DNA of 36,916 nt from a virus (Duplodnaviria > Heunggongvirae > Uroviricota > Caudoviricetes): the IMG/VR virus record IMGVR_UViG_2534681999_000017. One strand, 5' to 3'. Position 1 is the stretch's first letter; each line of letters opens with the position of its first letter. Shown one piece after another: positions 2,032-35,168 of the stretch. The position numbers and the translations under genes were made by a program. The notes under the pieces are model-generated. The model searched no databases. It had not been told where the DNA came from and worked only from the letters and a program-made list of their open reading frames with translations.

Positions 2032-2592
2032 TTATTTTTCCGAAACGCTCGCAGGATAATAACGATAAAGGGTTGAAAGGCCGATATCAAAAATAAGTGC
2101 CACCTGTCTTCGACTGACACCCCCGGCCAGTAAACGCCCGACCTGCTCGTATTGTTCCTGCGTGAGACGACGGGGTCTGCCGCCGGTTCGTCCCCTTTCA
2201 CGGGCAGCTGCAAGACCAGCCCGTGTCCGTTCGACAATTAATTCACGCTCCATTTCTGCCAGCGCACCCATTATGTGAAAAAAGAAGCGCCCCATGGGGG
2301 TTGACGTATCAATGTTGTCAGTAAGACTACGAAAATTTATCCCCTGTTGCTGTAATTCATCTGTCAGCGCAACAAGGTGGCGCATACTGCGCCCCAGCCT
2401 GTCCAGTTTCCAGACCATCAGTGTGTCACCGGGTTTTAGTTTCTTCAGTGCCCGCTTCAGTCCCGGCCGCTGTGTCGTTTTACCACTCATTTTATCTTCA
2501 AAAATCTGCTCACATCCTGCACATTCCAGCGCATTTCTTTGTAAACCTGTGTTCTGGTCATTTGTTGATACGCGTATATAGCCAATCAGCAT
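2032..2592 (-). CDS. gin: Serine DNA invertase, Gin/Pin/Cin/Hin family
   Basis: 186 aa, MLIGYIRVSTNDQNTGLQRNALECAGCEQIFEDK...VWKLDRLGRSM...GINFRSLTDNIDTSTPMGRFFFHIMGALAEMERELIVERT; near-identical motif order to Mu Gin and e14 Pin. Confidence 0.93.
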   Translation of the reverse strand: MLIGYIRVSTNDQNTGLQRNALECAGCEQIFEDKMSGKTTQRPGLKRALKKLKPGDTLMVWKLDRLGRSMRHLVALTDELQQQGINFRSLTDNIDTSTPMGRFFFHIMGALAEMERELIVERTRAGLAAARERGRTGGRPRRLTQEQYEQVGRLLAGGVSRRQVALIFDIGLSTLYRYYPASVSEK

Positions 2593-2647
2593 GTATTTAC
2601 CTTCCTTAAAAAGAGGTGGAAAGGCCTTTTAAAGCAGATATACGGCA

Positions 2648-2673
2648 TCCCTGAAACCTTCGGTTTACGGGAT
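2648..2673. other. gix-like crossover site A (gin-proximal), 26 bp imperfect dyad
   Basis: TCCCTGAAACCT TC GGTTTACGGGAT; the inner half (TCCCGTAAACC on the other strand) is shared with site B and matches the Hin/Gin half-site pattern ending AAACC. Confidence 0.6.
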
Positions 2674-2815
2674 ACTGTAAACAGGGCCGCGAATGCCCTG
2701 CCATCGAACGGAGCGGCTGTTGCAGCGAATAAACTCGCCACTCCAAGAAATATTAATGGTGTCCCATTTGACGGAACGCAGGATATAAATATTACATCGG
2801 GGATGACGCAGTCTG
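2663..2815. repeat. Inverted repeat arm 1 of the invertible segment (about 150 bp), encoding the conserved start of the alternative fibre tip
   Basis: High identity to the reverse complement of 3886-4034, for example CTCGCCACTCCAAGAAATATTAATGGTGTCCCATTTGACGGAACGC versus CTCGCCACCCCAAGAAATATTAATGGTGTTCCTTTTGACGGAACGC. Confidence 0.8.
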
Positions 2816-3018
2816 TGGCTGACTCACGTTATGTTCAAAGCATTCGAAGAGGTTCAAGGTCAACGATTGGAATGCAATATAATATTTTTGAGGTTCCTGA
2901 CGGATGCGTACTTACAGGGCTTGATGTCGCTGGTGATGGTAATGCAACGGTAACCGCATATTATCGACCTGTTCAGTTTCTGATAGATGGTTCGTGGAAA
3001 ACAGCTTCCAGCGCATAA
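2674..3018 (+). CDS. Alternative tail-fibre C-terminal tip (Sv'-like exon), no start of its own, silent in this orientation
   Basis: In-frame reading from site A gives ...GLRDTVNRAANALPSNGAAVAANKLATPRNINGVPFDGTQDINITSGMTQSVADSRYVQ...YYRPVQFLIDGSWKTASSA, homologous to the S C-terminus (…ATPRNINGVPFDGTLDINITSGMTQS…YYRPVQIYINNAWRTVSSV). Confidence 0.7.
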   Translation, partial: TVNRAANALPSNGAAVAANKLATPRNINGVPFDGTQDINITSGMTQSVADSRYVQSIRRGSRSTIGMQYNIFEVPDGCVLTGLDVAGDGNATVTAYYRPVQFLIDGSWKTASSA

Positions 3019-3097
3019 AAGTGCAGTAGTTCAAAAAACAGATTATCTGAATAAATATATGATGATTTTGTCTTTTCAACAAAAACAAGGTGAAATA

Positions 3098-3619
3098 ATG
3101 GAGCTTATTAACGTAAAACGATATTACCCGGAACACAAACCCTATGGTGAGGATGTTCAGTATTTCCAGAGTGAGGACGGAAGGGATTTTTATGAATCTA
3201 TCCCGCTTTTCACAAAGAAATACAAACTCTGTATTTCGCCTGTAACGGGTATTATCTGCTCTGTTGCTGAAGATGTCTCTGCTTTATATCCGGCAGGTTT
3301 TACTGTTGTTGAAGTGGACGAACTGCCGGAAGGTGTGAATATTGACGGTAACTGGCAGTTTTCTGATGGCCTGATATCAAAGGTGACGGTAAACTGGAAG
3401 ACGGTTGCTGAAAAGCGCCGCTCATCGCTGCTCCAGGAAGCCAACGAAACTGTGGATGACTGGAAAACGGAATTAAAACTGGACATGATTAGCGATGAAA
3501 ATAAATTACAGCTGACGCGCTGGATGGCGTATATCCGACAGCTTAAAGAAATGCACTTTAATGATATTGCCAGTGAGGGGCATTACCAGGCGATTCCCTG
3601 GCCGGAAAAACCGGAATAA
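3098..3619 (+). CDS. Tail-fibre assembly chaperone (Mu U / Tfa family)
   Basis: ATG at 3098 with AAGGTGA upstream; MELINVKRYYPEHKPYGEDVQYFQSEDGRDFYES...LTRWMAYIRQLKEMHFNDIA...PWPEKPE; the ORF-track start at 2987 is an upstream over-extension. Confidence 0.8.
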   Translation: MELINVKRYYPEHKPYGEDVQYFQSEDGRDFYESIPLFTKKYKLCISPVTGIICSVAEDVSALYPAGFTVVEVDELPEGVNIDGNWQFSDGLISKVTVNWKTVAEKRRSSLLQEANETVDDWKTELKLDMISDENKLQLTRWMAYIRQLKEMHFNDIASEGHYQAIPWPEKPE

Positions 3620-3653
3620 TTCAGAGGGTGCATTCAGCACCCTTTTCTGTGGT

Positions 3654-4565
3654 TTACACTGAACTTACCGTTCTCCAGGCATTATTAATATAAATCTGAA
3701 CCGGGCGATAATAGACCCCACCGATATTGTCCGCAGACCGGGAGCCGGTTTCCTGCACGTTAATTCCGGAAAGCATACAACCGGAAGGTGCGCTGTAATT
3801 CCATGACATTTCATTGCCTCCGGGTGAATGATAGCTCTGTGCTCCAAGCTGAACATTCTGTACATACCGGCCATCTGCGGTTGACTGCGTCATTCCTGAC
3901 GTGATGTTGATATCCAGCGTTCCGTCAAAAGGAACACCATTAATATTTCTTGGGGTGGCGAGTCTGTTTGCTGCCACGGCGGTTCCACCCGATGGCAGGG
4001 CATCAGCAGCCTTATTTACCGTTTCCCGTAAACCAACGTTATCGATAAAAGCGCCTTTATCCGGAATGTCTGCGCCGTTCTGCTCCCTGCGCAGGTAACG
4101 GTTATCACCTTCGCTTTTGCTGTAAACATCCAGATTATTACGGGCGGTTCCCGCATTCTCCAGGTCGGCAAGGTTCTGATCCTTCGCCAGAGCATTAACG
4201 TCACCGGGACCAAGACTGTTTTTTGTGGCAAGCGCCCCAAGACCAAGATAACCACGGGCAAGACGCTGGGCTTCCGCACCGGCATCAGCAATTTCTTTCA
4301 GGTTGTTTTTCCGGGAAAAGGCATTCGCAGCGATAATGGCTTTAATGGACAGCGTAAGCTGGTTTAACTGCGCCTTATCCGGCTGAATACTGGCTTCAGC
4401 CAGAATATTCAGCAGTTCGGCCTGGAGAATATTCAGCCAGTCCTGACCAATCCAGCTGATACCTTTTTGTCCGTCACCTTCGGTAAACCAGGTGGTGGTA
4501 TTACTCTGCGCCGGTGCCAGCGCAGGCATATTCGCCACGCCGGAATTATTATCAACATGGAACAT
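3654..4565 (-). CDS. Tail fibre protein (Mu S-like), constant part fused to the currently expressed tip
   Basis: True start MFHVDNNSGVANMPALAPAQ at 4565 (ATG overlaps the upstream stop as TAATG); C-terminus ...GVYYRPVQIYINNAWRTVSSV is a P2 H / Mu S-type fibre tip. Confidence 0.85.
   Translation of the reverse strand: MFHVDNNSGVANMPALAPAQSNTTTWFTEGDGQKGISWIGQDWLNILQAELLNILAEASIQPDKAQLNQLTLSIKAIIAANAFSRKNNLKEIADAGAEAQRLARGYLGLGALATKNSLGPGDVNALAKDQNLADLENAGTARNNLDVYSKSEGDNRYLRREQNGADIPDKGAFIDNVGLRETVNKAADALPSGGTAVAANRLATPRNINGVPFDGTLDINITSGMTQSTADGRYVQNVQLGAQSYHSPGGNEMSWNYSAPSGCMLSGINVQETGSRSADNIGGVYYRPVQIYINNAWRTVSSV
3886..4034. repeat. Inverted repeat arm 2 of the invertible segment
   Basis: Reverse complement of this stretch aligns with 2663-2815; homology starts exactly at the shared gix half-site. 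Confidence 0.8.
4023..4048. other. gix-like crossover site B, inside the S tail-fibre coding sequence
   Basis: TTCCCGTAAACC AA CGTTATCGATAA, compared with the Mu gixL sequence as recalled (TTCCTGTAAACC GA GGTTTTGGATAA); inverted relative to site A. Confidence 0.6.
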
Positions 4566-5125
4566 TAAATATTCTCCTCTTCGTGACTGTTTGCATATAC
4601 GTAAATAAACGTCTGCCATGCAGGCTTATAACGGTTCAGAATACATTCCAGCGCACCGCCTTCATAAATACGCAGCGGCGTGAGAATATCATCCAGCACA
4701 TTCATATTCCGGTAGCCGGTTTCACTGTTAATCGTGACAATACTGACCCACTGTGAATCCGGTGATGGCTGAATATCTATTTCATAACCAAACTCTGCCG
4801 CAAACCGGATATAAAATTCACGGTTAAGAGAGGGTTTCATCCGGTATTTATTCCCGGCATAACGCTGACGCTCCTGAATGGTTGCGCCGGTCATATCACA
4901 TTCCGGTAACCCCAGATAACGCTCCCAGTCTTCCAGCAGCAGACGGGATGAATCAGGAAAACGTTCTGCCAGCATCTGGTTACCGGTCCAGGAAACACGC
5001 TCCGTGGAATGACTGAGGCCCAGGCACAAAGCCGCAAGAACGGATGACGGCCGCTTATCCCATGCCAGCCCGTCAGGCAGCAACTGCAACAGGGCGCGCT
5101 GATGCGGGGTCAGGGTTACAGCCAT
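4565..5125 (-). CDS. Baseplate/tail protein, Mu gp48-like (P2 gpI-like)
   Basis: 186 aa ORF in the syntenic position immediately upstream of S; translationally coupled. Confidence 0.7.
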   Translation of the reverse strand: MAVTLTPHQRALLQLLPDGLAWDKRPSSVLAALCLGLSHSTERVSWTGNQMLAERFPDSSRLLLEDWERYLGLPECDMTGATIQERQRYAGNKYRMKPSLNREFYIRFAAEFGYEIDIQPSPDSQWVSIVTINSETGYRNMNVLDDILTPLRIYEGGALECILNRYKPAWQTFIYVYANSHEEENI

Positions 5126-25914: not shown

Positions 25915-26340
25915 TCAGAAAAGTGGCGGTTGCGTTCTTGCCAGATGCAGACGGCGCTGTTCGCGTATGACGGTATAAATCTGGGTTTCTGACATCCGGT
26001 AATGGCGGCGAAGGGATTCAATTTTCTCGCCCCGGTCCCAGCGCGAAAATATCTCATTGTTTCGCAGCTCGGCAAAGAGAGATTCCCCGACCGGCAGGTA
26101 ATAACCCCGTCCGCCCATATAGGCTGCCTGAGCCGCAGCCACCTTGCGTGCCAGTTTACCGGCCAGTACCGGCTCAATCCCCTGACGCTGAAGTTCTGCG
26201 CCGGTGACTTCAACCAGTTCTGACAGGGTCCGCGGCCAGTTCTTTTTGAGAACATCATCAGGGATGTCATCAAGGCGGTCGATAAGGGCGTGCAGTTGCT
26301 CACTGTCACCACCAAACATGCTCATCTGAGTTTCTGCCAT
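25915..26340 (-). CDS. Mor/C-family transcriptional activator (sole family member in window)
   Basis: 141 aa, C-terminal HTH …YRMSETQIYTVIREQRRL… resembling Mu Mor/C as recalled; immediately upstream of the lysis and late genes. Confidence 0.75.
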   Translation of the reverse strand: MAETQMSMFGGDSEQLHALIDRLDDIPDDVLKKNWPRTLSELVEVTGAELQRQGIEPVLAGKLARKVAAAQAAYMGGRGYYLPVGESLFAELRNNEIFSRWDRGEKIESLRRHYRMSETQIYTVIREQRRLHLARTQPPLF

Positions 26341-26370: not shown

Positions 26371-26405
26371 GTTTAAAATAAAAATCCCGCGTTGTGGCGG
26401 GATTT
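26371..26405 (-). terminator. Intrinsic terminator for minus-strand transcription after gemA
   Basis: Perfect 9-bp stem AAATCCCGC/GCGGGATTT with 6-nt loop, followed on the transcribed strand by TTATTTTAAAC. Confidence 0.6.
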
Positions 26406-26409
26406 GGGG

Positions 26410-26919
26410 TTAACGGGGAAGTGATTTTTCATACTGCCTGCAAACGGCGTCATACCCCATCAGCGTGCGTTCGGGCATTCCCATCGCGGCCAGCATTTTG
26501 CGGCGGTGCCATCGCTTGAGACGCTCCAGCACATCTGAGGCCAGGGCGGGGTGTTGCTCCAGCCACTGCCAGTTTGCCACACCTTCGCCGCCGTTCTGCG
26601 CGGCCGTCTGCGATTTCACCCAGCGGTTAAGGGCGGTTTCCGCACCATCGGTGATAAAGCCCTGCCGGTGCATCACCTTCCAGATGGCGCGAATTTTGGC
26701 GGTCACCGTACCCGGTTTTAAGGCCCGGTTAACCGGGTTCTGACGCACTTTAAAACCGCGTTTTTTGAAAACATCCAGCACGCGGGATAACTCATCCGGT
26801 GACATATCCCGGCAGCTGGTTTTGCCGGTGGCTGCCAGCAGCGCGGATGTATAAGTCTCATCATCCAGGGCAAGCTCGCGCTTTGCCACATGAATGGCGG
26901 ATATCAGTTTTCCTCTCAT
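26410..26919 (-). CDS. gemA: GemA-like early protein (Mu gp16, DUF1018-like)
   Basis: 169 aa, MRGKLISAIHVAKRELALDDETYTSALL…; recalled resemblance to the GemA family, last gene of the early operon. Confidence 0.6.
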   Translation of the reverse strand: MRGKLISAIHVAKRELALDDETYTSALLAATGKTSCRDMSPDELSRVLDVFKKRGFKVRQNPVNRALKPGTVTAKIRAIWKVMHRQGFITDGAETALNRWVKSQTAAQNGGEGVANWQWLEQHPALASDVLERLKRWHRRKMLAAMGMPERTLMGYDAVCRQYEKSLPR

Positions 26920-27212
26920 ACCGTATTTACCTTTTTACGGACATGGAAAGCCTTTTCTGCCTCATCCCACCGGGCATGGTGTGTTGGTGGAATAATCATT
27001 ATGTGCCAGCCATCTCTGGTTGTTATCCGGCAGAAAAACTCACCGCTATATAACACAATGGCCTGCTGAATGAGCGCATCAGCCGCCCGTTCAACCGGAT
27101 GTCTTTTATCAAAAAAGCAGATGATTTTTCGACATAACCACCGGGTAATAACAAATGCGCCGAAAAAGGATGTGATATATAAGCACCAGAACAACAGAGA
27201 ACTATTGTCCAT
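26916..27212 (-). CDS. Hypothetical membrane protein
   Basis: 98 aa, N-terminal TM helix LLFWCLYITSFFGAFVITRWLC; lower-GC region. Confidence 0.4.
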   Translation of the reverse strand: MDNSSLLFWCLYITSFFGAFVITRWLCRKIICFFDKRHPVERAADALIQQAIVLYSGEFFCRITTRDGWHIMIIPPTHHARWDEAEKAFHVRKKVNTV

Positions 27213-27399
27213 TATCTTTCTCCTTATTCACTCTTCTGCGGCATTCGGCACAGTCATCAGGGCTTTCAAATGTATCCGGCTCGCGATTATGAGCCAGATA
27301 TAACCACCGTCCACATATACTGATATTTTCGCCTGTTTTAAAAAAATGATGCTTCCTGGCCATTAGTGGCCGCGCCCATCCAGCGGGTAGACTATTCAT
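27202..27399 (-). CDS. Hypothetical small Cys-containing protein
   Basis: 65 aa with ICGRW…DDCAEC; overlaps neighbours. Confidence 0.35.
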   Translation of the reverse strand: MNSLPAGWARPLMARKHHFFKTGENISICGRWLYLAHNREPDTFESPDDCAECRRRVNKEKDNGQ

Positions 27400-27766
27400 T
27401 TGCTTTATCCTCCATGCTGGACAGAATCATATGTATTAATGTCGGGCGTGGAGATATACGCATTTCATTAAGCGTCTGAAGGGCAGCAACAGCTGCCTGT
27501 TTATCGGTGCCTTTGGCAATTTCAGCAAGAGAATGCACAATCCATAACGGACTTAACGCCACGGCTGAATCCAGAATCATGTCATCCATAATAATTTCTG
27601 GCATATCCCGTTTGTCACATTCTTTATCCATAAAAGAAACGATTTTTTCTGCATCTTCCGGTTTCATGCCTCCGGCGATGAGAATTTTACGATATTCATA
27701 AGACGATCTTAATTCAATACTCATATTCATCTCCTGTAACTCTGACAAGGTCGTGATTTTTCTCAT
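27392..27766 (-). CDS. Hypothetical acidic protein
   Basis: 124 aa, net acidic; early operon, lower-GC block. Confidence 0.4.
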   Translation of the reverse strand: MRKITTLSELQEMNMSIELRSSYEYRKILIAGGMKPEDAEKIVSFMDKECDKRDMPEIIMDDMILDSAVALSPLWIVHSLAEIAKGTDKQAAVAALQTLNEMRISPRPTLIHMILSSMEDKANE

Positions 27767-27948
27767 TTATGTTTTCCAGTAATACGGATATATATGTCGA
27801 TAAGAAGATTCATAATAAACAGGAAGAGCGACATCCTGATAAAGAACCATATATCCGGCATCATGGACAGATTTCCTGTAACCGCAAATATAAAACCAAC
27901 CCCCCACACAGGAACGATAATTGCGAAAAAAACAAGTCTCCTTATCAT
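27763..27948 (-). CDS. Small two-TM membrane protein
   Basis: 61 aa, two hydrophobic helices (LVFFAIIVPVWGVGFIFAV and FFIRMSLFLFIMNLLIDIYI) and basic C-terminus. Confidence 0.45.
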   Translation of the reverse strand: MIRRLVFFAIIVPVWGVGFIFAVTGNLSMMPDIWFFIRMSLFLFIMNLLIDIYIRITGKHK

Positions 27949-28496
27949 GTCGTTAACTCCCGTAATACAACATCTTCGGCAGTCCGACGACGGTGATAAA
28001 TAAAACTCACCGTGCCCTCGGATAATTCAAATTTCTCGCCGATTTCCCTAAAGGTAAGACGCCGTGGTGATTCAGCATCCCGTAATTCACGAATAAGATG
28101 AACATCATCGTCAGGTATGCGGGTAAAAGGCAGTAATTCTCCGTATTTTTTCATGCTTACGCCAATATATCGCGCCCGATTGTGGACAGAATCCCGGTCT
28201 CGCCCCAGATATTCTCCTATTTGCTTACCGGTCATCGTCCTGGCATTTTTTCGGATAAATTTATCTTCATCAGGTTTAAATCTGAGGCGTTTGCATTTGA
28301 GCAACTCCGGGTAAGTACCGCGTAATAAAACAATCCGGTTATGTACACCCCAGAAACTTCTTTTTATCCTGACAGCAATATCCTTAACCGGGGTGGATGG
28401 ATAAAGCGCAATCAGCAGCGCATCTTCTTCAGGTGTCCATGCGCGAACATGAGCGGGTGCACGGCCTTTTCTCCCCATGGGTTGTAATTTCATCAT
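27945..28496 (-). CDS. Putative DNA-binding regulator with three HTH-like repeats (Myb/GcrA-like first repeat)
   Basis: 183 aa; WTPEEDALLIALYPSTPVKDIAVRIKRSFWGVHNRI, TGKQIGEYLGRDRDSVHNRARYIG, TFREIGEKFELSEGTVSFIYHRRR. Confidence 0.5.
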   Translation of the reverse strand: MMKLQPMGRKGRAPAHVRAWTPEEDALLIALYPSTPVKDIAVRIKRSFWGVHNRIVLLRGTYPELLKCKRLRFKPDEDKFIRKNARTMTGKQIGEYLGRDRDSVHNRARYIGVSMKKYGELLPFTRIPDDDVHLIRELRDAESPRRLTFREIGEKFELSEGTVSFIYHRRRTAEDVVLRELTT

Positions 28497-28499
28497 GCA

Positions 28500-29015
28500 T
28501 CACCCCCCGACTCGCTTTTCGGCAGCATAAAACTCATCAGACAGAATTTCGGTCATTTTCCGTTTTGCGGAATCATCTTCGCACTGAAGGTAAATAACAT
28601 CGTCAACGCAGAACCACTTCACGGGACCATGCAATATTGCTGAGAAGTCAATACCCAGCCAGAACAACAGTGCATCGGTTCTGGCATACGTGACGGGCGA
28701 ATATTCACGCCACAGACTGTTAAGTTCGTCAGAGGCAACGCGCAGGGCTTTGGGAATACGTGATGTGCGCGGTGTGCAGCTCCAGCCATTCGACGCAGTC
28801 GGTTTTCGCCATAAGTCGCGATGAAAAGGATATTTGTCATCCATAAAGCGCAGCCCTTTAAAACAAAAGCCACTGATACCGGATACAAATACCGACCGGC
28901 ACGCAACATTCAGCACGGCCTCAAGGCGTTTTGCCTCATCCTTAACTTTCTGGCAGTCCTGCTGATATTTTTGCCACGCGGCCAGCGCGGAAGGGTTTGA
29001 TGTTTTAAAGAACAT
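28500..29015 (-). CDS. Hypothetical protein
   Basis: 171 aa, start overlaps upstream stop by 1 nt. Confidence 0.5.
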   Translation of the reverse strand: MFFKTSNPSALAAWQKYQQDCQKVKDEAKRLEAVLNVACRSVFVSGISGFCFKGLRFMDDKYPFHRDLWRKPTASNGWSCTPRTSRIPKALRVASDELNSLWREYSPVTYARTDALLFWLGIDFSAILHGPVKWFCVDDVIYLQCEDDSAKRKMTEILSDEFYAAEKRVGG

Positions 29016-29548
29016 TACGCCACCTCCGCAGATATCCCGGCAGGTGCAGCCGTCCGGTCAACAATCAGGTAACGCAGAACATGTTCGGTGATATTCCAGC
29101 CGCTTAAACCGCAGATAATGACACCCAGGCGAATGTCGATATACGCCATCACAAACTGGGGCACGCCTTCTTTCATGGCCTGCTCATCAACTTCAACCAC
29201 CACATAAACGGTTTCGCAGGTCAGTACGCCCTGAGCAAATTCCCACGCCATCGACGGAATATCATGCCCCTCAATCCACGGCAGGGATTTTCTGAAGCTG
29301 CACCACTGAACATCATCAGCCGCACCTTCCTGGCTGCATTTGCGACGAACCGGCTGCACCGGGCGGGGACGCGGAATATCATAAAAACCGTTACATTCCG
29401 TCAGCACCCCGGCATCGACCGCATCACGCAAAAAATAAACCATCGAGGATGGCGGCATATTCATTTTTTCAGCCAGAATGCCGCAGGTCAGACGCCCGTA
29501 AATACTCAGCCAGTTTTTAACCCCTTCAAGCACTTTTGCATCAATCAT
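29015..29548 (-). CDS. Hypothetical protein, possible N-terminal winged-helix
   Basis: 177 aa; N-terminus …LSIYGRLTCGILAEKMNMPPSSMVYFLRDAVDAGVL…. Confidence 0.5.
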   Translation of the reverse strand: MIDAKVLEGVKNWLSIYGRLTCGILAEKMNMPPSSMVYFLRDAVDAGVLTECNGFYDIPRPRPVQPVRRKCSQEGAADDVQWCSFRKSLPWIEGHDIPSMAWEFAQGVLTCETVYVVVEVDEQAMKEGVPQFVMAYIDIRLGVIICGLSGWNITEHVLRYLIVDRTAAPAGISAEVA

Positions 29549-29551
29549 GAA

Positions 29552-30094
29552 TTATTCCTCCGTCAGCGCCACATATTCAGAATGTTTAATTTCCTGGCAT
29601 TCTTCAGGAATACACCCTTTTATTTCCCTGCCATAAGCGCCTACTTTAAACACCACGCACAGGGCATCACGGGAGAGCGACGGGGTCCACCAGGAGTCCG
29701 TGTTAAACATGGAGGGGATTCTCATTACCCCCAGCTTTTCACAGAGCCAGACAAGGAAATCAGGACGCTTTCTTAACTCACGTTCAGCGGTTTCAATCAT
29801 TGCGGCAATCGCCGGACCTTCAGGGCATGACTCATCAGGTCTGGCAATAAAGCACGGTCCGTCCCCGATAAAAGCCACATCATCGCGCTTACGCCAGCCC
29901 GCAGGCAGAGCACCAGAAAAATAAAACTCACTGATTACGTCCATGGCAAACGGCTTTAAGCGCAATCCGGCAGCGCCTGTATTTTTCAGTAATGCCCGAA
30001 GAATACTGTTGCGTAGCGGTAAAACAGTCTGTTGATATTTGGTGAAATATTTATTTGTCTGCACACGGTCTAATTTGAAATAAAAATATGCCAT
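29552..30094 (-). CDS. Hypothetical protein
   Basis: 180 aa; ATG at 30094 with AAGGA upstream; first gene after gam. Confidence 0.5.
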   Translation of the reverse strand: MAYFYFKLDRVQTNKYFTKYQQTVLPLRNSILRALLKNTGAAGLRLKPFAMDVISEFYFSGALPAGWRKRDDVAFIGDGPCFIARPDESCPEGPAIAAMIETAERELRKRPDFLVWLCEKLGVMRIPSMFNTDSWWTPSLSRDALCVVFKVGAYGREIKGCIPEECQEIKHSEYVALTEE

Positions 30095-30191
30095 ATATCC
30101 TGTTCCTTATTTTCAGTTTACAGGCGCAGGCAGTCCCCTGACGCGAGCGCCATAATTAAAACGAAGTGATATTTAATTGATTAATGCGGTG

Positions 30192-30722
30192 TTATTTATT
30201 CAGTCCGGCGTCCTGTTCAAAAGGCTCGACATAAAAACTTTCAGCGCCTTTATTCACCTTAATACCGGCAATCCCTTTCACCGCATCCGGCTCCGCCAGG
30301 ACCGCTTCCTTGTTCACTTCCTCTTTCGTGCGGATAAAACGCTCAAGGCCCATACGGCGCAGCATTTCAATCACACCTTCCACATCACGACTGACGCTGC
30401 ATGATGGATTCCCCAGTCGCCATGACACCGTTCCGGTGGTCAGATTGGCAGTTTTGGTTTTGCCGCCGTTCGTCAGCTCATCACGGTTGGTTTTGCACCA
30501 GTCCTGAATCCCCTTAAAAAGCACTTTGATTTCTTTTTTAAGGTTTTCAATCTGCGGCGTATAACGGGCGGTGATTTCTGCCACTTCATCATTCATCGCT
30601 GTTTCCAGGCGCAGCGCCTCTCGCTGAATATCGCCCAGGGTGCGGATATCGCGGCTGACCTCTTCACGGGTCTGCGGTGCCGCCTCTGCTGCGGCCTTTA
30701 ATTTTGTAACGCGTTTTGCCAT
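30192..30722 (-). CDS. gam: Host-nuclease inhibitor Gam (Ku-like DNA-end binding)
   Basis: 176 aa; …GDIQREALRLETAMNDEVAEITARY…WCKTNRDELTNGGKTKTANLTTGTVSWR…GLERFIRTKEEVNKEAVLAEP…, close to Mu Gam as recalled. Confidence 0.9.
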   Translation of the reverse strand: MAKRVTKLKAAAEAAPQTREEVSRDIRTLGDIQREALRLETAMNDEVAEITARYTPQIENLKKEIKVLFKGIQDWCKTNRDELTNGGKTKTANLTTGTVSWRLGNPSCSVSRDVEGVIEMLRRMGLERFIRTKEEVNKEAVLAEPDAVKGIAGIKVNKGAESFYVEPFEQDAGLNK

Positions 30723-30733
30723 TTTGTTTTTCC

Positions 30734-31027
30734 TTATTGCAGTGTGCCTGATGCTTTATGCACGCGGTGGCGTTTAATGATGGCATCCGCCCCAAAAGCC
30801 TGTACAGATGCCTGAAATTCCGCTGAGAGAAACTGAATAATTTCAGGGCTGTGATACTGGAGAATACTTGCATAAACGTCACAGAGTGACGTCGGCCTGT
30901 TATTCGTATCACGTTCTGTTTTTACATCCACACCAATCTTTTCATGCACTTCAACACAGTCATTGCCTGCCGGTTTTTCGTCATGCGAAACATGCTTAAA
31001 TTCAAAAATAACGCGTACTTTGCTCAT
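30734..31027 (-). CDS. Hypothetical small protein, paralog of 31032-31304
   Basis: Likely start MSKVRVIFEFKHV at 31027; the track start at 31054 overlaps the upstream gene. Confidence 0.45.
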   Translation of the reverse strand: MSKVRVIFEFKHVSHDEKPAGNDCVEVHEKIGVDVKTERDTNNRPTSLCDVYASILQYHSPEIIQFLSAEFQASVQAFGADAIIKRHRVHKASGTLQ

Positions 31028-31031
31028 GGAA

Positions 31032-31304
31032 TTACCCCTGCTGATTAAATTCATTACCTTTAATAACCCCGGAACGCATGCTCATATCTTTCATGAGCGC
31101 ACTGGCTTTCATTGCCACAAGTTCAGCAAAGTCTCTGCTTTCCGCGAGCATAACCACCCCAAAAATCATGGCGGGTCCATCACCTTTCTGCTTTATCCCG
31201 GTTGAACGTATGTCCAGACTTACCCCCATGCGCACTGTTCCATCAGCGTTTTTATGGATAACGTGCTCCTTGTATTCGAAAATAATGCGTACGACTTTAC
31301 TCAC
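31032..31304 (-). CDS. Hypothetical small protein, paralog of 30734-31027
   Basis: 90 aa starting MSKVVRIIFEYKEHV; shared N-terminus with the downstream neighbour. Confidence 0.45.
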   Translation of the reverse strand: MSKVVRIIFEYKEHVIHKNADGTVRMGVSLDIRSTGIKQKGDGPAMIFGVVMLAESRDFAELVAMKASALMKDMSMRSGVIKGNEFNQQG

Positions 31305-31582
31305 CCTCTGGTCCTCGTTCTGTTTGGATAACTGACCCGGCGTCTGACCTCACGGCAGAACCGAATCATGGCATTAAAGGCTTCTTCCTCCGTCACCGCT
31401 TCCGGTATCCCCGGAACCAGTAACTGCTCCTGTTCATCACGTCCATGACGCGCCATAACCTCAATCACATGCCGTACCGTGGCAGGCTTTCCGGCAACTA
31501 TCGGCAATGCACCTTCCGGCAGGACGTAACCAAACTCAATAAGACCACTCGACCACGCCCATGCAATGAGATTTTTTTTCAC
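31301..31582 (-). CDS. Hypothetical early protein
   Basis: 93 aa, coupled overlap with neighbours. Confidence 0.4.
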   Translation of the reverse strand: MKKNLIAWAWSSGLIEFGYVLPEGALPIVAGKPATVRHVIEVMARHGRDEQEQLLVPGIPEAVTEEEAFNAMIRFCREVRRRVSYPNRTRTRG

Positions 31583-31583
31583 C

Positions 31584-31850
31584 TCACACCTCCCAGTAAA
31601 CCGTGCAGCCGCTGATGCGGGTGGCCTTCACACGGCGGCGCAGGCCGTTGGTCTGTATGGTGATTTCAATTTCACCGGTTCCCTGCACGTTGCCTACCGG
31701 CGGCGTGGTTTTCAGTGCAAAACGTTGTGGGTAGCGCTTACTGCGTTCCAGTACCGCACCGGCAAGTTCGGTCAGACGGCGCGCGCTGTTCAGGGAGTCG
31801 AATAAATTCATTTTGTTACCGCAGGATTGCATATTCATATAACACCTCAT
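31584..31850 (-). CDS. Hypothetical early protein
   Basis: 88 aa per track; true start may be the internal MNLFDSLNSARRL. Confidence 0.35.
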   Translation of the reverse strand: MRCYMNMQSCGNKMNLFDSLNSARRLTELAGAVLERSKRYPQRFALKTTPPVGNVQGTGEIEITIQTNGLRRRVKATRISGCTVYWEV

Positions 31851-32078
31851 TTAGCTGACTTGTTTCGCACCAACAGAACGGCATATTCCGCTGTAAACGT
31901 CTGTCGCACCTTCGCGATCAAGTCCGGCAGATATCACCATTCGTGTGCGGTCATTAAATTCAAAAAGTAAATCGCCACATTCTTTATTTTCGGCCAGTGA
32001 AATCACCTTCACGTTATCGAAATTAACCAGGTAAAAGCGTCCGTAAATATCAGGAATATAAAATACCGCCATAATCAC
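31851..32078 (-). CDS. Hypothetical small early protein (positional equivalent of Mu kil region)
   Basis: 75 aa immediately downstream of B; assignment by position only. Confidence 0.35.
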   Translation of the reverse strand: MIMAVFYIPDIYGRFYLVNFDNVKVISLAENKECGDLLFEFNDRTRMVISAGLDREGATDVYSGICRSVGAKQVS

Positions 32079-33007
32079 ACCTGTGAGAGTAATTCAGGGT
32101 TGGTATAAACCTCTTTAAAGGCCGCATTAATATGTTTTTCTGTCAGCGCCGCACCTTCACCGCTGGCGGTGAGCCACGCCTGGTTAAGCGTATGTGTCAG
32201 AACGCGTAACGCTCCCGGCTTTTCAGCGATAGCCTGCATGACGGCCAGCTCGGCCTCACCACTGATACCCCATGCCCTGGCAATGGCCAGCACATCCGCC
32301 TTTTTGGCCTTGCGAAGTTGTTTTGTACGGGCAAGACGGCTGAACAGGCGCGATAAATCATCAAAGGCGCGGCGTCCACCTTTAAACAATCCGCGCGGGT
32401 TACCAATAAGCACCATCCCGATCCCCGTGGCGTCCTGAATTGCCCGGAGTTGCTCCAGACCGTCAATACCAAGATGATCCGCCTCATCCACAATCACTAG
32501 TCCACGCGTTCCCATCAGGCGACGGCGGATGGCGCGGGATAATGCCCCTTTGTTCGCGCGGGTGTAATCAATCCCCAGCGCATCGGCCAGCTCCAGCAGA
32601 CACTCCGTGACGCTGGAGTGCGCGGGTGACAGGGTGATCATCCAGGTGTTTGGTTGCTCCTGGCAGTAATTACGGGCGGTGGCCGTTTTACCTACCCCCG
32701 GCACGCCCACAATGACGTTAATACAGCCCATCAGGCGAACCGCCTGAAACAGTGCGCGCAGCTCCTGAACTGTCTGCGTTTCCACAAACTGCGGCGGTTC
32801 CGGCAGTGCGCTTTGTTTATTCCAGTTCTCATACCAGGAACGCAGGGAAGCAGCCACAGCGGCGTTATCGCCTTTATATTTCCCCTTGCGGAAAGCCGAT
32901 AATGTGCCGTCGGAAATTCCCGCCTCTCTGGCGATGGCATACTGCGTCAGTACGCCGCCATCAATAAGTTCATCAATGGTCTTGATTACATCGTTAATAT
33001 CAGTCAT
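32075..33007 (-). CDS. B: MuB-like AAA+ target-DNA activator / transposition ATPase
   Basis: 310 aa, N-terminal HTH and Walker A VGVPGVGKT, Walker B LVIVDEADHL; directly downstream of A. Confidence 0.9.
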   Translation of the reverse strand: MTDINDVIKTIDELIDGGVLTQYAIAREAGISDGTLSAFRKGKYKGDNAAVAASLRSWYENWNKQSALPEPPQFVETQTVQELRALFQAVRLMGCINVIVGVPGVGKTATARNYCQEQPNTWMITLSPAHSSVTECLLELADALGIDYTRANKGALSRAIRRRLMGTRGLVIVDEADHLGIDGLEQLRAIQDATGIGMVLIGNPRGLFKGGRRAFDDLSRLFSRLARTKQLRKAKKADVLAIARAWGISGEAELAVMQAIAEKPGALRVLTHTLNQAWLTASGEGAALTEKHINAAFKEVYTNPELLSQV

Positions 33008-33077
33008 ATTATTAACCTCTCATTTGATACCTTGTTTAATCAAATAACCTGAGTCGCCGCTCGGGTTATTTTTTATT

Positions 33078-35168
33078 TCAGGCCAGCGGGTCATTTTCTT
33101 TTAATTTCGCTTCGAGCAACTGCAATCCCCGCTGGAAATTGCGCTCGTATTCTTCATCAGGCTCATCATCAATGGCAGGTTGCTGAACGGCCACCGTATT
33201 ACCTACCGGGCGATAGATGTTTTCCAGCCAGGGCTCCTGCGGCTTGTGCTCCAGCACGTTGACAACCTCATCCTCGGCATCACGGATTTTTTCCTCTGCG
33301 CGTTTACGCATGCCTTTAAGGCGTTGCTGCTGTTTGTAGTATTCCGCGCTAACCGGGAAGGCTTCGCGTTTATTACCGTCCCATACCGCCTCGCAAATCA
33401 CGCTGCCATCCAGGCGACGTACGGTAATTCGTTCGGCATCATGAATGTCATAGCTGATAAGCACCTTGCGGCCATGCTCATCACGCAGCTCGGGCGCGTA
33501 GTAAATATTATTCAGCCAGCGTATTTCACAGCGTCTTACAGGGCGTTCCACCATCGGCCGGAACATGTCCCGCAATTCCACATCGGACAGCCATTCAATT
33601 TCCGTGTCCTCTTCCGCCAGGCGTTTTTTTCTGAACTCCGCCGGGCTGTAATGCTTGCCGTTCGGCTTCACCGGTAATTCATCGTGCGGCCGGTTGTTGT
33701 ACCACTCAACACCATCACGAATGGCATCAATCAGTTCAGACCAGGACGGTAAATCACGCATCGCTGACTGCTGCCGGGCGTTCAGCCGTTTGCCCTGTTG
33801 CAGGGCAGTAAATGCCGAGCGTAAATCGCGGTTGGTTTTGCGTAACGTCTCGCGATCTGCACCTTTCCCGAAATAGGTGCGGTATTTACGGGCTATGCGC
33901 ATCGGTAATGTGCGGTTAAGCCGTTCGATAATGCCTCGTCCCTGCGGATTACCGGCAATCCCGGTCGGGTGATTAATCCCCAGTCGCGGCAGTATCCCCA
34001 CAACCTCCTTATCCAGGATGTCGGCGGTTTCCCCGGAGCCGTTATCCGAGTAATACAGAAACGGTTTGCCGTGATGGCGAATGCCGTGCTGTATGGCACC
34101 GGCTACGGCGAAAACATTTTCAGCCAGGTCAAGGCTCCAGCCCACCACAAAGCGCGTGCCACCGTCGATAACAAAGGTCACTTCCGGTGCAAATGGCCGA
34201 CCGTGAACCGGGTGTGCGCATTTCAGCTTCATGCCGTGACCGTCACCAATCCAGACATAATTCACCGGCATTCTGGACCAGTCGCGGCGCGTGAATCCCT
34301 CAAGCTGGCGGTATTCACTGCCGGTCACCCGGCCTTTTTGTTTCACCACTTCCGGCAGTTTCTTCATTGCGCGGCGAATGGTGTCATAAGACGGCATGAT
34401 ATCGAGCATATAAGGCTCATCAGCGTGCCGGTGCTGCCATTCAGCGACAAAATCCTCGTAAGCCTCGGTCATTGGTCGGCCGTTTGACTGGCGATACTGC
34501 GCCAGAAATTCGGGCAGCCAGTTAATATCTTCGGCTTTTATTTCCTGGCGTTTACCCGGTGCCAGTAAAAGCAGGCGTTCAGCGGCGTTCTGTGCCTTGT
34601 TAAAGGCCGCAATCCATCGCTTCAGCGTGATTTCACTCAACGCACGGCTGTTTCCCTTTTTGGCGTTCGCCGTCTCAACCATTGCCACAATGCGCTCGTC
34701 CAGCTGTGAACGTGCCAGGTTGTCAACGATAAACCGGATAGCCTTCGCGCAGCTGAAACCGGGTTGTTGCGCGACTTTCATCACTTCGCTGACGATCGCG
34801 ATTCGTGCATCAGCCACCTGGCGCTGGTTTTCAGTCAGGGCATTGAGGCGTTCGACCATCAGTTGTGGTGATCCGCGATATGCCTCCACCGCATCAACCA
34901 CGTCAGATGAGCGTCTGGCCTTTGTCACCACCGGAGCCGGTGATTCATCGGCTTTTTGCGTCATCAGTTGCAGGGCATAACGTTCACGTAATGCCTGCTG
35001 CGTCACTTCAGGTAAACAGTCGATGCTGTATTCAGTTGCTTTAGAGCCTGAGCGACGACGGGAACAACAGCTTTTCCCTTGTACGTAACGTTGTAATGCC
35101 TGGCGAATACCTTTTGTTGTAGCAGGCATTCCGGGCGCGCCAATCAGTTCTTTTGCAATGACATACAT
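33078..35168 (-). CDS. A: MuA-like DDE transposase
   Basis: 696 aa; rve-type catalytic core (…WIGDGHGMKLK…YYSDNGSG…IERLNRTLP…), downstream of ner and upstream of B. Confidence 0.92.
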   Translation of the reverse strand: MYVIAKELIGAPGMPATTKGIRQALQRYVQGKSCCSRRRSGSKATEYSIDCLPEVTQQALRERYALQLMTQKADESPAPVVTKARRSSDVVDAVEAYRGSPQLMVERLNALTENQRQVADARIAIVSEVMKVAQQPGFSCAKAIRFIVDNLARSQLDERIVAMVETANAKKGNSRALSEITLKRWIAAFNKAQNAAERLLLLAPGKRQEIKAEDINWLPEFLAQYRQSNGRPMTEAYEDFVAEWQHRHADEPYMLDIMPSYDTIRRAMKKLPEVVKQKGRVTGSEYRQLEGFTRRDWSRMPVNYVWIGDGHGMKLKCAHPVHGRPFAPEVTFVIDGGTRFVVGWSLDLAENVFAVAGAIQHGIRHHGKPFLYYSDNGSGETADILDKEVVGILPRLGINHPTGIAGNPQGRGIIERLNRTLPMRIARKYRTYFGKGADRETLRKTNRDLRSAFTALQQGKRLNARQQSAMRDLPSWSELIDAIRDGVEWYNNRPHDELPVKPNGKHYSPAEFRKKRLAEEDTEIEWLSDVELRDMFRPMVERPVRRCEIRWLNNIYYAPELRDEHGRKVLISYDIHDAERITVRRLDGSVICEAVWDGNKREAFPVSAEYYKQQQRLKGMRKRAEEKIRDAEDEVVNVLEHKPQEPWLENIYRPVGNTVAVQQPAIDDEPDEEYERNFQRGLQLLEAKLKENDPLA

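Follow-up and report, generated by a model that had tools for sequence, protein, structure and literature searches.

An AT-rich slot of exchangeable small genes in the Mu-like prophage Sp18, flanked by a gp12 homologue and gemA

The window, a stretch of 36,916 nucleotides of a Caudoviricetes virus (IMG/VR record IMGVR_UViG_2534681999_000017), contains a block of five small genes at positions 26916–28496, between a homologue of phage Mu gp12 and the gemA gene. This 1581-bp block is 100% identical to positions 5048863–5050443 of E. coli O157:H7 Sakai (NC_002695.2), in the region annotated as "prophage Sp18, Mu-like phage". In the literature, this prophage of the Mu type is regarded as apparently intact (PMC2669165). 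We read the block, with a probability of about 0.8, as the promoter-distal, exchangeable part of a Mu-type semi-essential early region. Because the interval is AT-rich in both the Sp18-like and the Mu/SfMu lineages, whatever genes it holds, it is described here as a mosaic accessory slot and not as one foreign block. Two layers would make up the slot. The first is a lineage-conserved gene for a basic protein with three helix-turn-helix repeats, most likely DNA-binding. The second consists of four independent small modules. Judged by their features, one would encode a membrane hairpin, another an acidic, helical protein, the third a protein resembling a zinc ribbon and the last a membrane-anchored protein whose soluble domain varies.

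The gene content of the slot varies between relatives. Eighty IMG/VR loci were retrieved by scanning viral contigs with a GemA alignment and were mapped by tblastn; among them, 30 Sp18-like loci have both anchors present. Six gene arrangements occur among these 30 loci, given here by the number of residues of each product. The Sp18 type (183/61/110/65/98) is present in 12 loci, and seven contain 183/103/Mu gp13/Mu gp14-like followed by a reverse-strand 79-residue gene. Four loci have 183/103/116/110/65/98 and another four 183/103/116/110 with a reverse-strand DUF2513 gene, while 183/103/98 is found in two and 183/103/116/110 in a single locus. All 30 loci contain the gene for the 183-residue protein (67–100% identity), and it is also found, 53% identical, in an intermediate lineage. 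The genes for the 110-, 98-, 65- and 61-residue proteins are present in 21, 18, 16 and 12 of the loci, respectively; in L003 and L009 the last of these is replaced by the gene for a 103-residue protein. Those for the 61- and 98-residue proteins are found only in Sp18-like prophages. At the DNA level, the breakpoints with respect to relatives are located at gene boundaries, at about 26895–26926, 27737/27756 and 27939. Comparison of the loci indicates that each of the four small genes is gained or lost independently of the others.

The same picture of variability is obtained from complete E. coli genomes, 5426 of which were searched, with seven variant loci compared gene by gene. The 4.8-kb mor–gam region is matched in 233 of them, some part of the block in 230, and at least 80% of the block in only 174. 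Many of the E. coli genomes with a version of the slot are those of Shiga-toxin-producing strains. A scan of genome contigs with GemA alone gave no confirmed relatives.

The guanine-cytosine (GC) content of the block is 43.3%, compared with 57.2% on the late side (5001–26915) and 51.6% on the early side (28497–35000). Of all windows of 1581 bp across the 36.9 kb, only 0.2% have a lower GC content, and the block lies at z = −2.45 relative to their spread. The change is sharp at the start of gemA (26919) and gradual towards gp12, with a minimum of 35% at about 27600–27900. The GC content at third codon positions (GC3) is 0.39–0.47 in the five genes, against 0.52–0.65 in gemA, mor, gp11, gp12 and gam. 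Since GC3 is also low, the composition of the block is not merely a matter of amino-acid content. Comparably AT-rich parts of the window are limited to the invertible tail-fibre segment (around 2500–3600) and the repressor end of the prophage. In the Sp18-like loci, the slot and gemA have mean GC contents of 44.6% and 56.1%, and in Mu/SfMu-like loci of 45.4% and 54.4%. The contrast is weaker in eight loci of the intermediate lineage (50.1% and 54.0%). The slot is AT-rich regardless of gene content in two of the three lineages, the Sp18-like and the Mu/SfMu one.

The original prediction, made from the sequence by eye, was that of a lower-GC cargo block inside the early operon. The calculations of sliding-window GC and GC3 agree with the first part of this description, and the position inside the early operon also holds, as the block is on the same strand as ner-A-B...gam-gp11-gp12 and gemA-mor. 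Uniform composition and conservation of all five genes across Mu-like relatives, which would have spoken against this description, are not what is observed, given the GC contrast and the six arrangements. A single cargo block is not borne out either: the 183-residue gene is present in all 30 loci, the family of the 110-residue protein is found in the SfMu-type slot, and genes are gained and lost one by one.

According to the open reading frame (ORF) list and the RefSeq annotation, the minus strand encodes every phage gene in this part of the window. They are arranged, in order of transcription, as ner, A, B, several small genes, gam, a gene for a 180-residue protein, the gp11 and gp12 homologues, the five block genes, gemA, mor and a lysozyme gene. 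The semi-essential early region of Mu is long and poorly conserved, encoding small proteins of unknown function (PMC8705779), and its function is largely unknown (PMC3820752). It resembles the Sp18 block in having the same operon position and homologous bounds (gp12 with 53% and GemA with 44% identity). In Mu, the ORFs of the slot are also small and tightly packed, with a GC content below that of gemA and mor (0.46–0.48 against 0.53–0.55). The block thus shares with the Mu-type region its position and strand and its small, poorly conserved ORFs. Each small gene is naturally absent from some apparently intact relatives, which is only suggestive of dispensability for lytic growth.

There are also differences. 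Between gp12 and gemA, Mu contains gp13 (60 residues, Cys-rich), gp14 (100 residues) and Mu_54 (55 residues), and the four small Sp18 proteins have no homologue among these or any other Mu proteins. The two-repeat gp9 of Mu is encoded upstream of gam, whereas the three-repeat gene of Sp18 is located between gp12 and gemA. Mu has an annotated semi-early promoter upstream of gemA, where Sp18 has no intergenic gap. In SfMu and in Mu-like phages of Yersinia, a protein 36% identical to the 110-residue protein over about 90 residues, with which it has the conserved core LSPxWII..L..IA.G.DK.AAVAAL in common, is encoded in the same slot, just upstream of the gp14/gemA region, but its neighbours are Mu gp13 and gp14. 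No Pfam assignment was obtained for the ORFs in the slot of more distant Mu-like lineages.

The 183-residue protein (ECs_4956) is basic (isoelectric point, pI, 10.1) and contains three tandem Myb/SANT-like helix-turn-helix repeats, which align with each other and with both repeats of Mu gp9. The repeats are about 50–55 residues long and conform to the pattern W/F-x-x-E-D...I-A/G...R-x-x-x-V/I. In a blastp comparison, residues 66–166 are homologous to Mu gp9 (E8, 95 residues) at 32% identity (E = 1e-8). The two repeats of gp9 match the second and third of the Sp18 protein (E = 6.5e-5 and 3.8e-4), which has an additional amino-terminal repeat. The protein matches PHROG 323, 'transcriptional regulator' (E = 1e-58). 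Sub-threshold Pfam matches are located at three positions: Myb at residues 19–31, HTH_11/HTH_23 at 80–106 and Sigma70_r4 at 145–169. The best score is that of Sigma70_r4 (23.5, with a cut-off of 24.1), and the Myb_DNA-binding cut-off is not reached (16.6 bits against 24.4). A full phmmer scan of 1.84 billion representative proteins gave 774 relatives, about twenty of which keep the three-repeat form of around 180 residues, many others being longer, with three to nine repeats. Because the longer relatives exceed the Myb_DNA-binding cut-off (140 bits for P0168 and 148 bits for P0237, for example), they support the Myb/SANT fold class of the Sp18 protein indirectly. A PDB search with a profile of the family gave only non-significant matches to helix-turn-helix and homeodomain structures, and PADLOC gave only noise (E about 0.02). 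We regard the protein as an enlarged paralogue of Mu gp9 that most likely binds DNA. The name "AsnC family", given by several databases, finds no support, as the HTH_AsnC-type score of 20.1 bits falls short of the cut-off (27) and the AsnC ligand-binding (RAM) domain is not matched. The median ratio of non-synonymous to synonymous substitution rates (dN/dS) of the gene is 0.23; in strain JE86-ST05 a frameshift (L005, 2540–3090) is a sign of its decay. Distant relatives (P0168, P0294) have arrays of up to nine Myb-like repeats, and some are fused to superfamily 2 (SF2) helicase domains (ResIII, Helicase_C).

The 61-residue protein (ECs_5772) has two hydrophobic spans in a hydropathy analysis, at about residues 1–28 and 32–58, which would form a hairpin whose ends (MIRR... 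and ...GKHK) are positively charged. Its start codon, preceded by a GGAG, overlaps the stop codon of the preceding gene (ATGA). The median dN/dS is 0.26 and only a weak PHROG match is found. For ECs_4957, the ATG at 27724 has an AGGAG sequence 6 nt upstream and is the RefSeq start, giving a protein of 110 residues; all database homologues begin with MSIELRS. The alternative start at 27766, giving 124 residues, overlaps the stop codon of the 61-residue gene (ATGA) and has a weak ribosome-binding site. The extension begins with MRKI, the first four codons of a gene for a 75-residue protein at the same junction in strain OkiPb01678 (sister prophage L012); by this comparison, the 14 extra codons (27725–27766) are a remnant of the junction. 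The protein is mildly acidic in either form, with a pI of about 4.9–5.0 and a net charge of about −6. It matches PHROG 1988 (E = 1e-44). In a profile search, 68 unnamed homologues were obtained from E. coli, Shigella, Salmonella and Citrobacter. By tblastn, homologues of 30–45% identity are present in the same slot of SfMu-type phages, Mu-like phages of Yersinia and prophages of Salmonella and Citrobacter, and relatives are located there in many IMG/VR prophages as well. AlphaFold2 (AF2) models contain six to seven helices, at low confidence (predicted local distance difference test scores, pLDDT, of 54.6 and 64.1), and the protein is predicted to be all-helical and soluble. A fold like that of terminase small subunits, whose motifs this family seemed to resemble, found no support from Pfam or fold searches and was rejected. 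A toxin-antitoxin pair of the hydrophobic 61-residue and the acidic 110-residue protein was also rejected, as the gene for the latter is present without that for the former in 9 of 21 loci.

The 65-residue protein (ECs_4958) contains a conserved HH...C...CxxC pattern in an alignment of 16 homologues. The in-frame homologues keep His17, His18, Cys29, Cys50 and Cys53, apart from a single deviation at Cys29; the protein is small and zinc-ribbon-like, with these residues as putative metal ligands. It matches the amino-terminal half of the 146-residue profile PHROG 2358 (E = 5e-34), and its median dN/dS is 0.10. Homologues at 60–70% identity are found in Salmonella, Citrobacter, Buttiauxella, Scandinavium and Trabulsiella. 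In a Mu-like prophage of Salmonella, the homologue immediately precedes gemA, and a Citrobacter one belongs to an early operon of the Cro/Q type. Further homologues are present in Klebsiella, Pantoea, Shigella Sf11, Pseudomonas and E. coli phages. This distribution marks the gene as a promiscuous module common to unrelated temperate phages. Signs of decay are also seen in three database variants (P0101–P0103), which are frameshifted after about residue 22. The 98-residue protein (ECs_4959) has one amino-terminal hydrophobic span (residues 4–24, by hydropathy), followed by residues rich in Arg and Lys and a soluble domain of about 65 residues. Its gene has an AAGGAG sequence 7 nt upstream of the start, its stop codon overlaps the gemA start (ATGA) and its median dN/dS is 0.17; the protein matches PHROG 17269. 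When the two alleles are compared (26916–27212 of the window with L009 1102–1398 and with L015 and L023), they are 88% identical in residues 1–32, containing the anchor, and 30% identical in residues 33–98, the soluble domain.

Adjacent genes overlap by 4 nt (183/61), 8 nt (110/65), 11 nt (65/98) and 4 nt (98/gemA), and ribosome-binding sites can be recognised at the block junctions. The five genes are real and under purifying selection, with median dN/dS values of 0.10–0.26, similar to those of gp12 (0.20) and gemA (0.19). Individually, the products correspond well to the original prediction, in which they had been described as a transmembrane protein (98 residues, with its single span), a small Cys-motif protein (65 residues, the motif being conserved across homologues), a two-transmembrane protein of 61 residues and a triple helix-turn-helix regulator (183 residues). 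The acidic protein of 124 residues is mildly acidic, but its start is more likely at 27724. Translational coupling of all five genes would apply to the four junctions that overlap by 4–11 nt, not to the 61/110 junction, where this start leaves a gap of 38 nt. The suggested check by remote homology was informative for the 183-residue protein, with its repeats and homology to Mu gp9; neither this check nor two structure predictions led to an assignment for the four small proteins. A consensus scan of the block found promoter-like matches (7, with 7.3 expected from shuffled sequences) and terminator-like matches (6 against 5.7) at the expected level, none of them bracketing a gene.

As for a mechanism, the small modules would be drawn from an AT-rich accessory pool and reshuffled among related phages by recombination at gene boundaries, so that the low GC content would reflect this shared pool and not a recent single import. 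By analogy to Mu, the block would be transcribed after induction within the long early (Pe) transcript. Its products may be dispensable modulators of the host cell early in lytic growth, possibly also present at a low level in the lysogen. Judged by their features, the 61- and 98-residue proteins would be located at the inner membrane, with exclusion or envelope effects, and the soluble proteins would bind DNA or host proteins, those of 65 and 110 residues in the cytoplasm.

Several points weigh against the reading as a Mu-type early region. As the IMG/VR loci overlap in origin, many being from E. coli isolates, the 30 loci are not independent samples. The four small proteins have no match in Pfam, NCBIfam or PADLOC and are listed in PHROGs as 'unknown function'. 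PDB searches with the sequence of each protein alone were empty or non-significant (E ≥ 0.05), and fold searches with the low-confidence AF2 models of the 110-residue protein gave only helical matches at chance level. Co-transcription of the block from Pe is taken from Mu, and an internal promoter upstream of gemA, as in Mu, may have escaped the consensus scan.

What the products do is a separate matter. A tentative possibility is that, early in lytic growth, the soluble proteins of 110, 65 and 183 residues inhibit host defences or redirect the transcription or replication of the host. The early-operon placement next to gam, a known nuclease inhibitor, is in line with this, as are the small size, variability and independent exchange of the genes, which are typical of counter-defence loci. 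The recurrence of the 65-residue gene in early operons of unrelated temperate phages and the mild acidity of the 110-residue protein also fit. However, Pfam, PHROGs and the PDB reveal no similarity to described inhibitors, the modest net charge of the 110-residue protein is unlike that of DNA mimics and its models are of low confidence.

That the slot benefits the lysogen appears rather unlikely. Here, the 61- and 98-residue proteins, perhaps with partners and expressed at a low level, would block superinfecting phages at the inner membrane. Both are small predicted inner-membrane proteins, the diversified soluble domain and conserved anchor of the second would suit an interface in an arms race, and sister prophages have reverse-strand genes at the same place that resemble independently expressed morons. 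In Mu lysogens there is low-level Pe transcription through the semi-essential early region (PMC3820752). On the other hand, the genes share the strand of the early operon, their junctions overlap and they show no promoter signal of their own, PADLOC gives no match, and the dN/dS of the 98-residue gene shows no overall sign of positive selection.

A single recent import specific to Sp18, in which a moron-like cargo of all five genes arrived together from a donor of lower GC content, is very improbable. It would account for the sharp GC drop at gemA, for one of the lowest-GC 1.6-kb stretches of the window and for four small genes without Mu homologues. Moron loci of temperate phages (lambda rexAB, lom, bor) are, like the block, optional, compositionally distinct and variable between close prophages. 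Classical morons come with a promoter and a terminator of their own and are expressed while the prophage is repressed, whereas the block lies within the early operon, its junctions overlap and its signals are at chance level. No flanking repeats, integrase or promoter/terminator pair of its own were seen at the block. The conservation of the 183-residue gene in all Sp18-like loci and the intermediate lineage, the 110-residue family in the same slot of SfMu-type and Salmonella prophages, the varying gene combinations and the equally AT-rich alternative cassettes also argue against import as a unit. Less probable still is that the low GC content is a by-product of hydrophobic proteins with their Phe, Ile and Leu codons: the lowest values (35–37%) do coincide with the 61-residue membrane gene, but GC3 is low in all five genes, including those for the soluble 183-, 110- and 65-residue proteins.

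Taken as a Mu-type accessory slot, the finding is in itself ordinary phage mosaicism in a published prophage. The semi-essential early region has been known for decades; the gp12–gemA interval now appears as a well-bounded, AT-rich slot with exchange of one gene at a time, and a misleading database name for the helix-turn-helix protein is corrected. The five genes described here, together with at least seven alternatives, form a small testable set for exclusion, takeover and counter-defence. It is conceivable, though on balance doubtful, that at least one small module represents an early-expressed phage effector of a new kind; the 98-residue protein may act in exclusion, and the 110- or 65-residue protein may inhibit a host defence or housekeeping protein. 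If so, the gp12–gemA slot of enterobacterial Mu-like phages would be a hotspot for systematic effector mining.

The coordinates of the block and its neighbours are given in Table 1. A literature search by the locus tags of the block genes found no paper, and Rfam, scanned over the full sequence, gave no match to an RNA family.

Table 1. Block genes and neighbouring features, with positions in the window. CDS, coding sequence.
Feature	Positions	Strand	Product or role	Evidence
ECs_4956	27945–28496	−	183 residues	ORF; RefSeq CDS "hypothetical"
ECs_5772	27763–27948	−	61 residues	ORF; RefSeq CDS "hypothetical"
ECs_4957	27392–27724 (or 27392–27766)	−	110 (or 124) residues	ORF; RefSeq CDS "hypothetical"
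Junction segment	27725–27766	−	possible 14-codon amino-terminal extension of ECs_4957	sequence; comparison with sister prophage
ECs_4958	27202–27399	−	65 residues	ORF; RefSeq CDS "hypothetical"
ECs_4959	26916–27212	−	98 residues	ORF; RefSeq CDS "hypothetical"
gemA (Mu gp16 family)	26410–26919	−	conserved downstream boundary of slot; GC 57.5%	Pfam GemA, E = 3e-30; 44% identical to Mu GemA
gp12 homologue	28500–29015	−	171 residues; conserved upstream boundary of slot; GC 49.6%	53% identical to Mu gp12, E = 2e-63; PHROG 2314
gp11 homologue	29015–29548	−		67% identical to Mu gp11
180-residue gene	29552–30094	−	between gam and gp11 homologue	
gam	30192–30722	−		57% identical to Mu gam
mor	25915–26340	−		27% identical to Mu Mor

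Around the slot, some further features may be mentioned. In sister prophages, a gene on the opposite strand is located just upstream of gemA (L004 1179–1418, L005 1171–1581, L011 1177–1416), encoding either a 79-residue protein or a 136-residue DUF2513 protein; these are candidates for expression while the prophage is repressed. Variability extends to the slot between gam and gp11 (29552–30191): in strain 2015C-3121 a gene for a 192-residue DUF5420 protein (23% identity) takes the place of that for the 180-residue protein, which strains JE86-ST05 and AST46 lack. In the window, the 180-residue gene is separated from gam by a gap of 97 bp with 36–40% GC. Downstream of the block, the 69-bp gap between gemA and mor contains a strong terminator-like hairpin (26382–26405, minus strand) with a 9-bp stem, including five G-C pairs, followed by a T-run. 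In phage Mu, gemA and mor overlap; the Sp18 hairpin may attenuate early transcription before mor.

A second AT-rich tract in the window, at 2032–4619 (GC 0.41–0.45), is the invertible host-range segment. It contains a Gin-like resolvase gene (2032–2592, minus strand), a tail-fibre assembly gene (2987–3619, plus strand) and an ORF of 321 residues (3654–4619, minus strand) that has no Pfam match and probably encodes a tail fibre. Here too, the low GC content matches an exchangeable module. Sp18-like Mu prophages are also found inserted inside the genomes of Stx2c- and Stx1a-converting phages (phage records LC727881.1 and LC727895.1), where the annotation reads 'region of the inserted Bacteriophage Mu-like phage'; one of them holds the complete five-gene block, at about 96% identity.

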